Part shown: positions 1 to 5,025 of the stretch, one piece after another | Layout of the letters: every line of letters starts with the position of its first letter | How positions within the stretch are numbered: position 1 is the first letter of the stretch | Source of the DNA: Escherichia coli | GTDB taxonomy: Bacteria; Pseudomonadota; Gammaproteobacteria; Enterobacterales; Enterobacteriaceae | Strand: one strand, 5' to 3' | Assembly (NCBI RefSeq): GCF_003334335.1 | Contig: NZ_QOWQ01000048.1 | DNA length: 30,915 nt | Translations under genes and position numbers: made by a program | Notes under the pieces: model-generated | Seen by the model: only the letters and a program-made list of their open reading frames with translations | What the model was told of the DNA's origin: nothing | Databases searched by the model: none

Positions 1-264
1 ATGAAGTTCCGGCTCGGTGGTTTCGAGGCCATAAAGTCGGCTTACATGGCCCAGGTGCAGTACAGCATGTGGGTGACACGAAAAGATGCCTGGTACTTTG
101 CCAACTATGACCCGCGTATGAAGCGTGAAGGACTGCATTATGTCGTGGTTGAGCGGGATGAAAAGTACATGGCGAGTTTTGACGAGATGGTGCCGGTGTT
201 CATCGAAAAAATGGACGAGGCACTGGCTGAAATTGGTTTTGTATTTGGGGAGCAATGGCGATGA
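1..264 (+). CDS. exo: Lambda-type exonuclease (Red-alpha), C-terminal fragment, 5'-partial at the window edge
   Basis: The 87-aa translation ending ...[11 protein letters not shown] matches the lambda Exo C-terminus as I recall it; the ATG at position 1 is internal to the real gene. Confidence 0.85.
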
Positions 265-899: not shown

Positions 900-921
900 A
901 CATGAAAAGCAAAATCATCAG

Positions 922-945
922 GGAGCTACAGGCTCCTTTTTTATT
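922..945 (+). terminator. Intrinsic-terminator-like hairpin plus T-tract
   Basis: GGAGC-tacag-GCTCC followed by TTTTTTATT. Confidence 0.45.
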
Positions 946-997
946 ATTCGCATTCACCCTCAAGCGTATTAACCAACAATTCAGGGATTAATGGAAG

Positions 998-1219
998 ATG
1001 GCAGACCTCATTGATTCAGCATCAGAAATTGAAGAATTACAGCGCAACACAGCAATAAAAATGCGCCGCCTGAACCACCAGGCTATATCTGCCACTCATT
1101 GTTGTGAGTGTGGCGATCCGATAGATGAACGAAGACGCCTGGCCGTTCAGGGTTGTCGGACTTGTGCAAGTTGCCAGGAGGATCTGGAACTTATCAGTAA
1201 ACAGAGAGGTTCGAAGTGA
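998..1219 (+). CDS. TraR/DksA-family C4 zinc-finger protein (lambda Orf73-like)
   Basis: A 73-aa protein with CxxC...(17)...CxxC (CCECG...CRTCASC), typical of the TraR/DksA zinc finger. Its stop overlaps the next ORF's GTG (GTGA). Confidence 0.8.
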   Translation: MADLIDSASEIEELQRNTAIKMRRLNHQAISATHCCECGDPIDERRRLAVQGCRTCASCQEDLELISKQRGSK

Positions 1220-1467
1220 GCGTAATTCACTCTCAGGCACTGCGTGAAGCGGCAGAGCAGGCAATGCATGACAACTGGGGATTTGACGCGGACCTTTTCC
1301 ATGAGCTGGTAACACCATCGATTGTGCTGACACTGCTGGATGAACGGGAAAGAAACCAGCAGTACATCAAACGCCGCGACCAGGAGAACGAGGATATTGC
1401 GCTAACGGTGAGGAAACTGCGTGTTGAGCTGGAGACAGCAAAAATCAAAACTCAACGAGCAGCGTGA
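1216..1467 (+). CDS. Ea22-like protein, N-terminal part, ended by an in-frame TGA at 1465
   Basis: GTG start overlapping the upstream stop; the 83-aa product resembles the conserved Ea22 N-terminus (recalled, not searched). The same frame stays open after the TGA for 53 more codons, to a TAG at 1627..1629. Confidence 0.6.
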   Translation: MSVIHSQALREAAEQAMHDNWGFDADLFHELVTPSIVLTLLDERERNQQYIKRRDQENEDIALTVRKLRVELETAKIKTQRAA

Positions 1468-1765
1468 GTAGAAGGTGTTATCTCGGATGGAAGTAAGCGT
1501 ATTGCTGAACTGGAGGCCTGGGTTGAATACACAAGAGCTGCATACGTAAGAGCAAAAGACAAGGGAGATTTGATCAGAGTTATTACCCGACAACCAACGG
1601 GATTTTACGCTTACGTACCATGTAATTAGGAATCCTTGAAGTGGCAGCCTAACTGCGGATACACTGAAATGGCGATTTGGTAACATGTTTCGCACAAGGC
1701 TGTTACTACGCTTAAAGATAATCAGCCATGATTAAACGCTTTGTAAAAAGTAAAAGGAAATTACA

Positions 1766-2380
1766 ATGAAAAAATCAATACTAATTTTAGGGCTTACGTT
1801 AATTGTCTCATCTCAAATACCATCGGCAATGGCAAAAAATGAATCAAGACTTTGGGTTGTTGTTGATCGAACGGAAAGACATACCTGCCCTTCAAGTAAA
1901 TGTGGAGTGGCTGGGAAACTATTTTTCAGGGAAGGCGTAGATTTTCTAGAAAAAAAAGGTGAATGGGTTCGTATAACTGAGCCATATTCAGCCTCATGTG
2001 TGGGAGGGGAAAGCGAATATATTAAAGAAGGTAATAAATCCTGCACAAGAAAAAACGGAATCGTCAATGGCAAGTTTTCAGAATGGGTTAAACTTAGTGA
2101 TCTTAGCAGTGAAAGGCCATCAGATCCTGCTGAAAATGCGAGCGGAGATGATACTTTAATCAAAGGATCTGATGACTACCGTATATACAAAAAAGAGTTT
2201 TCTTCGGCAGCTAGGAAGTTAATAAACGAAGGGGTCTGCACGGAAAGCGACTTTAAGGAAATCGGAGGGTGGATGGCATCAAGCAATAAGGGGAAAAACA
2301 TCTATTTCACATATTGCGGAGGAATGACGTTGTCGAACAGAATATACCTAGACGTTAAAAGTGGAAAGACTTTTAGATAA
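1766..2380 (+). CDS. Hypothetical secreted (periplasmic) protein, 204 aa, AT-rich accessory gene
   Basis: SD AAGGAAA 8 nt upstream of the ATG. N-terminal signal peptide MKKSILILGLTLIVSSQIPSAMA with an AMA-K signal peptidase I site and no lipobox. The mature part has 7 Cys. Codon usage is visibly AT-rich compared with the flanking genes. Confidence 0.75.
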   Translation: MKKSILILGLTLIVSSQIPSAMAKNESRLWVVVDRTERHTCPSSKCGVAGKLFFREGVDFLEKKGEWVRITEPYSASCVGGESEYIKEGNKSCTRKNGIVNGKFSEWVKLSDLSSERPSDPAENASGDDTLIKGSDDYRIYKKEFSSAARKLINEGVCTESDFKEIGGWMASSNKGKNIYFTYCGGMTLSNRIYLDVKSGKTFR

Positions 2381-2451
2381 TATGATATTACCAATGACAG
2401 TATTAATTTAATGCCTCCATAGAATTATCTCTAGGAAGTATGTATAAGAAA

Positions 2452-2488
2452 AGCCCGCACAATGAGCTGCTGCGGGCTTTGTGTTATT
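2452..2488 (+). terminator. Intrinsic terminator downstream of the secreted-protein gene
   Basis: AGCCCGCA-(11-nt loop)-TGCGGGCT followed by TTGTGTTATT. Confidence 0.55.
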
Positions 2489-2673
2489 CGCCATATTTTA
2501 TGAAGCAAATACGACACTATAGATAATTAAGCGTTGCTGGTTGTCGATTCCTCACTCACTCCTGTTGATGGCTCTCTTCTTGTATGTGCCATTGAAGGGT
2601 AATATCGAGTAAAAAGATACCGGAAGTATCCGCGCCGCCATGATTGTCTTTCTCCTAATGCAGGAAAAGCAGA

Positions 2674-3012
2674 ATGGCTAAATCATCAGCAGAGCGCAAA
2701 GTCGATCAGAGAGCCAAGCAAGCATCATCCGGTATGCGTAAGCTGGAGCTTGTACTTGATGCTCAGGAAATTGAAATGCTGGATCGTAACTGAGCCACGC
2801 GCCGCTTCAGGCATGCGCCTTACGAGTTTGGTGAGTACATCGCGTTACTGAGCCGCCAGGATGATGCACGTGTGCGCTGGCGTATAAAATCGATCAGCAG
2901 AAAACGTTGCGGTAAGTGCGGCGAGAGAGTTCCTGTTAATTCATGCCCGTGTAATGGTGACTCACAATGCTGGGTGACCAAAGGCTGGCACGAAACAAAA
3001 TTAATGATATAA
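2674..3012 (+). pseudogene. Cys-rich small-protein ORF interrupted by a single in-frame TGA (2791..2793); possibly an ea8.5-type gene
   Basis: Frame 1 is open from 2644 to 3009 apart from the one TGA. The C-terminal half carries CGKC...CPC...C, a zinc-ribbon-like pattern. SD AGGAAA precedes the ATG at 2674. The ORF track shows no intact ORF of 60 aa or more on either strand here. Confidence 0.45.
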
Positions 3013-3040
3013 ATCTCTGTGACATGTCACGGAGGCGGCA

Positions 3041-3469
3041 ATGAAATTAGACCAGCAATATCTAAAAGATCTACTTATCGCATTCGAAAAAACTCATGGC
3101 CCTGACACGATGCTTAGTGAACTAGAGGATAATGGCTTTAATAGATATGACCAAAATTTTATTTTCCATATGCGATTATTATGCGACTACGAATTAATAG
3201 TCAGGGTTGATGGAAAACCTGGGTTCGGTCATATAATGTCCAACGAGTTAGGGGAAGGTGTTGGATATAGTTGGATCGAAGTACCACTGAGGTTGACAGC
3301 AAGAGGGCATGATTTTATTGCTGACTTGCGTCAAAAGGAGGTCTGGCAAACTATAAAAACAAACTTTAAGGATGAGGGAATTAGTACACTAATAAGTGTT
3401 TCAAAATCACTAGCAAAAGGCTTTGCAAGGAAAAAGATAAAAGATATTACAGGAATAGATATTGAATAA
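3041..3469 (+). CDS. Hypothetical cytoplasmic protein, 142 aa, AT-rich accessory gene
   Basis: Strong SD GGAGG 5 nt upstream. No signal peptide or transmembrane segment. Followed by its own terminator. No catalytic motif that I recognise. Confidence 0.7.
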   Translation: MKLDQQYLKDLLIAFEKTHGPDTMLSELEDNGFNRYDQNFIFHMRLLCDYELIVRVDGKPGFGHIMSNELGEGVGYSWIEVPLRLTARGHDFIADLRQKEVWQTIKTNFKDEGISTLISVSKSLAKGFARKKIKDITGIDIE

Positions 3470-3513
3470 TTCTTAGCATCAGCAACTACTGCCTTTGGTG
3501 GAAATTATATCTG

Positions 3514-3540
3514 AACTCGCTACGGCGAGTTTTGTTTTAT
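3514..3540 (+). terminator. Intrinsic terminator downstream of the 142-aa gene
   Basis: AACTCGC-tacg-GCGAGTT followed by TTGTTTTAT. Confidence 0.6.
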
Positions 3541-3551
3541 GGAGATGATAA

Positions 3552-3719
3552 ATGCACTTCCGAGTCACAGGTGAATGGAATGGAGAACCATTCAACAGAG
3601 TTATCGAAGCAGAGAACATCAATGACTGCTATGACCACTGGATGATATGGGCGCAGATAGCACATGCAGACATAACCAATATTCGAATTGAAGAACTGAA
3701 AGAACACCAAGCCGCCTGA
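3552..3719 (+). CDS. Hypothetical 55-aa protein upstream of xis
   Basis: GGAG 8 nt upstream of the ATG; the ORF ends inside a hairpin plus T-run. Confidence 0.4.
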   Translation: MHFRVTGEWNGEPFNRVIEAENINDCYDHWMIWAQIAHADITNIRIEELKEHQAA

Positions 3720-3758: not shown

Positions 3759-3977
3759 ATGTACTTGACACTTCAGGAGTGGAACGCTCGCCAGCGACGC
3801 CCAAGAAGCCTTGAAACAGTTCGTCGATGGGTGCGCGAATGCAGGATATTCCCTCCTCCGGTTAAGGATGGAAGAGAATATCTGTTCCACGAATCAGCGG
3901 TAAAGGTTGACTTAAATCGACCAGTAACAGGTAGCCTTTTGAAGAGGATCAGAAATGGGAAGAAGGCGAAGTCATGA
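3759..3977 (+). CDS. xis: Excisionase
   Basis: The 72-aa product MYLTLQEWNARQRRPRSLETVRRWVRECRIF... matches lambda Xis as I recall it; it overlaps the int start by 23 nt, as in lambda. Confidence 0.95.
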   Translation: MYLTLQEWNARQRRPRSLETVRRWVRECRIFPPPVKDGREYLFHESAVKVDLNRPVTGSLLKRIRNGKKAKS

Positions 3978-5025
3978 GCGCCGGGATTTACCCCCTAACC
4001 TTTATATAAGAAACAATGGATATTACTGCTACAGGGACCCAAGGACGGGTAAAGAGTTTGGATTAGGCCGAGACAGGCGAATCGCAATCACTGAAGCTAT
4101 ACAGGCCAACATTGAGTTATTTTCAGGACACAAACACAAGCCTCTGACAGCGAGAATCAACAGTGATAATTCCGTTACGTTACATTCATGGCTTGATCGC
4201 TACGAAAAAATCCTGGCCAGCAGAGGAATCAAGCAGAAGACACTCATAAATTACATGAGCAAAATTAAAGCAATAAGGAGGGGTCTGCCTGATGCTCCAC
4301 TTGAAGACATCACCACAAAAGAAATTGCGGCAATGCTCAATGGATACATAGACGAGGGAAAGGCGGCATCAGCCAAGTTAATCAGATCAACACTGAGCGA
4401 TGCATTCCGAGAGGCTATGGCTGAAGGCCATATAACAACAAACCCGGTCGCAGCCACTCGCGCTGCAAAATCAGAGGTAAGGAGATCAAGACTTACGGCT
4501 GACGAATACCTGAAAATTTATCAAGCAGCAGAATCATCACCATGTTGGCTTAGACTTGCAATGGAACTGGCTGTTGTTACCGGGCAGCGAGTTGGTGATT
4601 TATGCGAAATGAAGTGGTCTGATATCGTAGATGGATATCTTTATGTCGAGCAAAGCAAAACAGGCGTAAAAATTGCCATCCCAACAACATTGCATGTTGA
4701 TGCTCTCGGGATATCAATGAAGGAAACACTTGATAAATGCAAAAAGATTCTTGGCGGAGAAACCATAATTGCATCTACTCGTCGTGAACCGCTTTCATCC
4801 GGCACAGTATCAAGGTATTTTATGCGCGCACGAAAAGCATCAGGTCTCTCCTTCGAAGGGGATCCGCCAACCTTTCACGAGTTGCGCAGTTTGTCTGCAA
4901 GACTCTATGAGAAGCAGATAAGCGATAAATTTGCTCAACATCTTCTCGGGCATAAGTCGGACACCATGGCATCACAGTATCGTGATGACAGAGGCAGGGA
5001 GTGGGACAAAATTGAAATCAAATAA
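3955..5025 (+). CDS. int: Tyrosine integrase, lambda Int type
   Basis: The 356-aa product MGRRRSHERRDLPPNLYIRNNGYYCYRDPRTGKEF... is essentially lambda Int by recollection; its 3' end faces the att site. Confidence 0.97.
   Translation: MGRRRSHERRDLPPNLYIRNNGYYCYRDPRTGKEFGLGRDRRIAITEAIQANIELFSGHKHKPLTARINSDNSVTLHSWLDRYEKILASRGIKQKTLINYMSKIKAIRRGLPDAPLEDITTKEIAAMLNGYIDEGKAASAKLIRSTLSDAFREAMAEGHITTNPVAATRAAKSEVRRSRLTADEYLKIYQAAESSPCWLRLAMELAVVTGQRVGDLCEMKWSDIVDGYLYVEQSKTGVKIAIPTTLHVDALGISMKETLDKCKKILGGETIIASTRREPLSSGTVSRYFMRARKASGLSFEGDPPTFHELRSLSARLYEKQISDKFAQHLLGHKSDTMASQYRDDRGREWDKIEIK

Follow-up and report, generated by a model that had tools for sequence, protein, structure and literature searches.

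Whether a single stop codon within an otherwise open reading frame marks a broken gene, a sequencing artefact or a recoding signal is the question raised by an Ea22-like gene in the 30,915-nucleotide stretch of Escherichia coli DNA analysed here (hereafter the window). A sequence-only reading of this DNA had noted that a second gene of the same early-left region, with a TGA at 2791, has a similar appearance, and had proposed that the two stops be explained jointly, by prophage decay, systematic error or programmed readthrough.

The ORF list identifies the plus strand of the window as the early-left region of a lambda-like prophage, with the gene order exo, orf60a, orf63, orf61-like, orf73, ea22 ... 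xis, int as in lambda; the host gene ybhC comes after int, which places the prophage at the lambda attachment site, attB (Table 1). In megablast searches against phage genomes the region from orf73 to position 1514 showed ~95% nucleotide identity to lambda, and the isolated phage Chlobot matched across the whole stretch with 98.3% identity. The lambda match aligned 525 query bases with 528 lambda bases, the first hint of indels. The TGA stop of orf73 overlaps the GTG start of ea22 (GTGA at 1216-1219), as in lambda, and translation reproduced exactly the structure previously described for the frame 1216-1629: GTG, 83 codons, TGA at 1465-1467, 53 sense codons and TAG at 1627-1629. The assignment of this frame as Ea22-like was also upheld, by the lambda identity and by a match of Pfam PF13935 (Ead_Ea22) to residues 3-100 of the conceptual product (E = 4.6e-22; model positions 2-139 of 139). 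A homologue with an intact frame and the same tail matched phrog_250 (E = 2.7e-49), and NCBIfam gave zero matches for any protein searched. The profile match, together with the position right after the TraR-like orf73 in the exo-xis region, makes the gene a member of the Ead/Ea22-like family.

Table 1. Features of the early-left region of the prophage, in window coordinates
Feature	Position	Strand	Basis
exo, 3' end	1-264	+	
orf73, TraR/DksA-type zinc-finger gene	998-1219	+	ORF list; phrog_54 DksA-like, E = 3.8e-25; TraR/DksA in RefSeq relatives
Truncated ea22 frame, 83 codons and TGA	1216-1467	+	ORF list, translation, lambda alignment
97-codon antisense ORF overlapping the tail	1402-1695	-	Hypothetical protein in Chlobot record
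A5 run with +1 insertion	1440-1444	+	A4 in lambda and all intact alleles
Out-of-register segment, nine codons, containing TGA 1465-1467	1444-1470	+	Alignments to lambda and intact alleles
4-bp deletion site, TTAC missing between A1470 and G1471	1470-1471	+	Alignments to lambda and intact alleles
Last Ea22-homologous stretch (EGVISDGSKRIAELE, coiled-coil end), downstream of the stop	1471-1518	+	Lambda alignment
Tail, first part (AWVEYTRAAYVRAKDKGDLIRVIT)	1519-1597	+	In-frame match to plasmid protein
Tail end (RQPTGFYAYVPCN) and TAG	1598-1629	+	Translation, searches
204-aa ORF, signal-peptide-like N-terminus (MKKSILILGLTLIVSSQIPSAMA)	1766-2380	+	phrog_8310, E = 3.6e-136
'DNA repair protein' (UmuD-like) remnant	2534-2599		Incomplete pseudogene in RefSeq relatives
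Second in-frame TGA, inside 112-codon gene 2674-3012	2791-2793	+	phrog_536, labelled 'transcriptional regulator'
xis	3759-3977	+	
int	3955-5025	+	

Since the Ead_Ea22 domain reaches residue 100, the stop at codon 84 cuts the domain short. Residues 1-76 of the truncated product correspond to lambda-type Ea22, comprising the N-terminal segment and most of the coiled coil, and residues 77-83 (IKTQRAA) are frameshift-derived. A functional Ea22, as characterised in lambda and Stx phages, has an uninterrupted ORF that encodes the N-terminal segment, the complete coiled coil and a folded C-terminal domain with K/RGE at its end; the window gene falls short of this, and its conceptual product ends in PCN rather than K/RGE.

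To understand how the stop arose we examined the nucleotide alignment to lambda, which revealed two indels, an additional A in an A-run and the loss of four bases (TTAC), with a net change of -3. The same pair emerged relative to four alleles, from independent assemblies, that are intact and bear the tail (L039, L040, L056 and L057). Across the segment that lies out of register, the lambda residues S K L N E Q R E Y Y are replaced by I K T Q R A A * V, and lambda CGT GAG is read as GCG TGA through the +1 shift; the lambda frame is back from GAA GGT at 1471. We considered the TGA as a substituted codon and ruled this out, given that it is exposed by the +1 insertion and that the frame is restored 26 nt downstream. 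The deletion itself creates a TAG at 1469-1471 that stops the original lambda frame. Both frames thus end inside TGAGTAG, so that each lesion would by itself be enough to cut the protein off at this point, and ea22 looks like one ORF with a single stop because the 4-bp deletion restores the frame that the insertion shifts. Of the lone in-frame TGA described earlier there remains a single in-frame stop, but it is the product of a +1/-4 indel pair and not of a lone substitution. The last Ea22-homologous stretch, being downstream of the stop, is untranslated; the RefSeq pseudogene feature stops at ~1515, close to its end.

The downstream sequence had further been said to diverge from lambda ea22, and the alignment to lambda supports this: homology ends at 1518, where the coiled coil gives way to the C-terminal domain, and the tail from 1519 onwards is unrelated to the lambda C-terminal domain, for which a published construct starts at ~S102 (PMC10834534). 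The first part of the tail instead shows 86-90% nucleotide identity, in the same frame, to an internal piece (WVECTRAAYVRAKDKGELTRVV) of a 284-aa hypothetical protein (phrog_20174 and phrog_21749) found on ~100-kb E. coli plasmids of phage-plasmid type; likewise, residues 104-132 of an intact tail-bearing protein, P0008, match phrog_21749 and phrog_20174. A search for relatives of the last 13 codons, covering 1598-1629, found no further ones. The other two frames of the tail contain 3 and 5 stops, and an open run of at least 53 codons makes up 9% of the window's stop-to-stop intervals and occurs in 2% of mononucleotide shuffles of the tail, so that chance seldom produces one; this long open frame is accounted for by real coding ancestry.

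Searches with the full 137-aa conceptual product recovered intact tail-bearing proteins, namely P0008 and P0009 (141 aa each), P0012 (161 aa) and P0011 (183 aa). A search with the tail only, which yielded just six tiny fusion ORFs, had indicated that no intact protein carries it, a false negative of the word index that was overturned by the 137-aa query. These proteins carry an identical or near-identical tail (AWVEYTRAAYVRAKDKGDLIRVITRQPTGFYAYVPCN) behind an undamaged linker (AKSKLNEQREYYEGVISDGSKRIAELE), and their DNA has A4 and GAATATTAC, hence no stop. They are rare, with one contig each, all from metagenome or read-archive assemblies. The context of P0009 is lambda-like as in the window (exo ... 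int, ybhC), that of P0012 is a different phage backbone with the 204-aa ORF still downstream, and this ORF lies 3' of the intact-allele genes wherever the contig extends far enough. Judged from these sequence comparisons, the tail did once code for protein, and the window allele is derived from an intact short-tailed form. That form is itself also devoid of the lambda-type C-terminal domain and of the K/RGE end, a terminal motif described for Ea22 proteins (PMC7093339, PMC10834534); the RefSeq label of such copies reads 'missing C-terminus'. The window gene resembles lambda Ea22 (NP_040612, 182 aa, PF13935) in its place after orf73, in the GTG overlap with the orf73 stop and in its ~95% nucleotide identity as far as ...KRIA(K/E)LE, across the N-terminal segment and the coiled coil, and differs from it in the 38-residue unrelated tail that stands in place of the C-terminal domain and in the broken frame. 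With P0008, P0009, P0011 and P0012 it shares the tail and the 204-aa ORF downstream, but not the A4 run and GAATATTAC.

We then examined how this allele is distributed. The tail is present in 128 of 5426 complete E. coli genomes, and ~102 of the 128 have the window allele (A5 and the 4-bp deletion), recognised in complete genomes by a match length of 265 nt as against 268 nt for the other allele. The identical indel allele occurs in 28 IMG/VR contigs, always with the same tail, as well as in several metagenome contigs and in phage Chlobot; E. coli FORC_081 is 100% identical to window 1380-1760. In FORC_081, PK8566, FDN-24 and ATCC 8739 RefSeq annotates the ea22 stretch as a pseudogene, 'ead/Ea22-like family protein; frameshifted; incomplete; missing C-terminus', with features such as ECOLC_RS15460 (E. 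coli ATCC 8739) and FORC81_RS09090 that have the same DNA as the window and show no difference of substance from it other than the IS1 of ATCC 8739. The locus has little import beyond that annotation, with no open question of phage biology made newly testable by it. Database entries for the 83-aa product are numerous (P0058, P0092, P0093 and others). Intact homologues of exactly this length had been put forward as the sign of a natural stop; many 83-aa database proteins indeed exist, but all represent the same allele, and the intact homologues of 141-183 aa show that the downstream frame was once coding.

The remaining tail-bearing complete genomes, ~26 in number, carry a second allele, here called allele (b), which shares the gene, the tail and the genomic position with the window and is truncated just before the tail through point stops rather than indels. 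In this allele the linker is intact and the first tail codons have undergone two nonsense changes, GAG to TAG and TGG to TGA; all five copies translated show both stops (...KRIAEL*A*VECTRF...), and the two identity classes among the 26 genomes correspond to the sequences checked. Its 103-aa product (P0109) is found on 211 contigs. No fully intact allele was seen among the 128 tail-bearing complete E. coli genomes, and two loci (L050 and L051) combine the indel pair with both point stops. The window gene has disabling lesions relative to intact homologues, and related copies show independent or accumulating ones, as is characteristic of a pseudogene. Further variants include a locus with an additional frameshift in the N-terminal part (L018) and one with only the insertion (L047; A5, ~3x coverage), which may be a recombinant with allele (b). 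A pattern scan of IMG/VR for single-indel intermediates found none, recovering 28 double-indel and 3 lambda-type copies with a pattern that was biased in needing GACAGC upstream. An 887-nt metagenome scaffold (L041) has TTA in place of the TGA, which reopens the ORF. The protein P0010, with Trp at the position of the stop, was considered as a revertant and rejected, as its DNA still reads TGA and the W stems from a gene call with another genetic code. Within the indel allele the tail is open in all ~35 copies examined, and 31 sequences show 8 variable sites and 7 haplotypes, with non-synonymous to synonymous ratios that come to 3:1 for the N-terminal part and to 2:1 for the tail, too few sites (8) to measure selection. 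One sequence recorded as an E. coli plasmid (L053; strain SZQ1, pOHT76-1_1, 43,337 bp, circular) contains the lambda-like region with allele (b) and may in fact be the genome of a lambda-like phage, excised or episomal.

The TGA at 2791 turned out to have another origin. It is a TGC to TGA point mutation at Cys40 of a gene with a Cys-rich C-terminus, whose intact alleles read ...ERNCATRRF..., and in the alleles examined it is always accompanied by Cys50 to Tyr; RefSeq flags this gene as 'internal stop'. The gene is intact in about twenty loci bearing the ea22 indel allele, Chlobot included, and one locus with intact ea22 (L039) nevertheless has the 2791 stop. Given that each of the two stops occurs without the other, they arose independently and by different kinds of mutation, and the proposed joint explanation does not hold. 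It is true, as had been pointed out, that the TGAs at 1465 and 2791 are both followed by G. Folding of 1465-1544 gave z = +0.49 relative to shuffles, with no stimulatory structure, folding of 2791-2870 gave z = +0.89 with no SECIS hairpin, and an Rfam search of window 900-3200 yielded no match above noise; selenocysteine at 2791 thus lacks the SECIS element that it calls for in both searches. Conservation of the stop and of the downstream ORF in diverged homologues, which programmed readthrough would call for, is likewise absent, the stop being confined to the frameshifted segment of one allele. The resemblance of the window to programmed UGA readthrough (e.g. of the Q-beta A1 protein) or selenocysteine decoding consists in one in-frame UGA with an open frame behind it, and in a Cys replaced at 2791; unlike in those systems, its stops are not conserved and are polymorphic with sense-codon alleles, and no SECIS or other structure was found.

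These observations suggest that the window gene is very probably a decayed short-tailed ea22 allele of a lambda-like prophage at attB beside ybhC, and that ordinary prophage decay, one of the options raised at the outset, accounts for it: the indels relative to intact homologues, the second knock-out allele and the RefSeq pseudogene calls all point this way. The ancestral gene coded for the Ea22 N-terminal segment and coiled coil, followed from the KRIAELE boundary by the 38-residue tail, a form that survives in the rare intact proteins of 141-183 aa. As for the order of events, which we infer, the C-terminal domain of an Ea22 gene would first have been replaced at this boundary by a fragment of another gene, giving a short-tailed chimera. 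This chimera would then have been disabled by the +1/-4 indel pair in the window lineage and by two nonsense mutations in another. The present gene is predicted to be transcribed with the early-left operon, with translation presumably coupled to the orf73 stop and running from GTG 1216 to UGA 1465. Its product would be an 83-residue fragment that has neither the coiled-coil end nor the tail, and the 53 downstream codons would be a fossil, translated, if at all, through background leakage at the UGA. The loss is presumably tolerated, the genes of the exo-xis region being accessory, and Chlobot, an isolated phage, carries the same allele; the accessory status of this region fits published work on the exo-xis genes (PMC7093339).

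A frame-restoring indel together with an open tail is also the pattern expected under selection for readthrough, and this is a counterpoint to decay. Programmed or selected readthrough would mean that most ribosomes stop at 1465 and some insert Trp, yielding isoforms of 83 and 137 aa, and that the deletion was selected. In E. coli UGA is the stop that leaks most, the frame is restored 3' of it, and the tail is open in every indel-allele copy examined. Nonetheless, we regard this as very unlikely. The stop is a by-product of a frameshift at a place where the intact homologues have sense codons, the second lineage has a TAG and a TGA at the start of the tail, some contigs hold all three stops, and the G that follows the UGA is a context of comparatively efficient termination, according to context studies. 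Moreover, neither a stimulatory structure nor an Rfam family was found, and the tail polymorphism has no synonymous bias. A second non-triplet indel restores the frame about half the time by chance, which makes a special explanation needless, and the divergence within the indel allele is so small that an open tail frame is expected anyway. Error in sequencing or assembly could be entertained for the A-run, one of the lesions being in a homopolymer, but its probability is negligible: the 4-bp deletion lies outside any homopolymer, and the identical allele is found in about 100 independent complete genomes (~102, from many laboratories and platforms), in the 28 IMG/VR contigs, in metagenome contigs and in an isolated phage, which disposes of systematic error as well. 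It is also highly improbable that the tail region codes on the minus strand. The 97-codon ORF exists there and was called as a CDS by the annotators of Chlobot, but intact Ea22-like proteins and the plasmid protein family have the plus-strand frame in common with the window, and RefSeq calls the antisense ORF in none of the genomes examined; its annotation is probably spurious and owed to the broken sense frame.

The far greater abundance of disrupted than of intact alleles could reflect selection for truncation rather than neutral decay. On such an account a tail-less Ea22 fragment, with the N-terminal segment and part of the coiled coil, would be favoured, for instance if the chimeric tail did harm or if the fragment combined with the Ea22 of co-resident lambdoid prophages through the coiled coil; full-length Ea22 is tetrameric, and different phages share a conserved coiled coil (PMC10834534). 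The tail is lost through two kinds of lesion, independent of each other, that both keep the N-terminal frame open (83 aa, 103 aa), and together they cover every tail-bearing complete E. coli genome checked. Against this, changes in the N-terminal part are 3 non-synonymous to 1 synonymous and L018 has its further frameshift there, stops and frameshifts are found in nearby genes of these prophages too, as in general decay, and the counts may reflect the clonal spread of two prophage lineages. We consider adaptive truncation unlikely. Also unlikely, and slightly more so, is an account in which the tail was lost repeatedly and independently since a tail-less coiled-coil fragment is advantageous to the lysogen or prophage (e.g. 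in mixing with and modulating co-resident Ea22), or in which the deletion was kept because low-level UGA readthrough provides a little useful full-length protein. With decay as the preferred reading, what the locus illustrates is that two indels which compensate each other, and not a substitution, can be what lies behind a lone in-frame stop, and that, as a practical rule, a nucleotide alignment to an intact homologue should come before any appeal to recoding. None of the complete E. coli genomes checked has a working short-tailed ea22 at the lambda attachment site, the gene having been disabled along at least two independent routes, and such repeated disabling could prompt the question of whether selection in resident prophages acts against the C-terminal modules of Ea22.

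The surroundings of the gene show several other features. The stretch coding for KRIAELE (~1495-1518, AGT AAG CGT ATT GCT GAA CTG GAG) is a recurrent join point: lambda and the window part directly after it, E. coli FDN-24 (L005) switches to unrelated sequence inside it, and in the small ORFs P0002-P0006 varied N-termini (e.g. the orf63 start) are joined to the tail at or just before it. Such a short stretch of shared sequence may favour the exchange or deletion of modules. In P0001 the orf73 start is joined to the codon immediately after the TGA. In ATCC 8739 an IS1 lies between the tail and the 204-aa ORF (L045 2839-3536, equivalent to window ~1700); other strains (NCTC9040, 1332KP) have an IS1 at the same place, and the window has none.

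The 204-aa ORF travels with the ea22 tail in all contexts seen, including the different phage backbone (L056), and since it accompanies the tail across backbones it looks like an accessory cargo gene (a 'moron'). The GC profile falls to 0.34-0.40 from about 1600 to 2600, a span that holds this ORF. Further downstream, the UmuD-like remnant is additional evidence that the region is a patchwork of fragments; in its stead the Chlobot record calls a 105-aa 'UmuD-like protein' that is in another frame and overlaps the next gene. In strains 1409 and NS-NP030 (L043 and L044) neighbouring genes at the equivalents of 250-440 and 3040-3700 contain frameshifts or internal stops, and the neighbours affected in some strains, namely orf60a/DUF1317, DUF2513 and the 55-aa ORF before xis, fit a general decay of the accessory region. 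A GC-rich hairpin is present at ~2450-2475, 3' of the 204-aa ORF.
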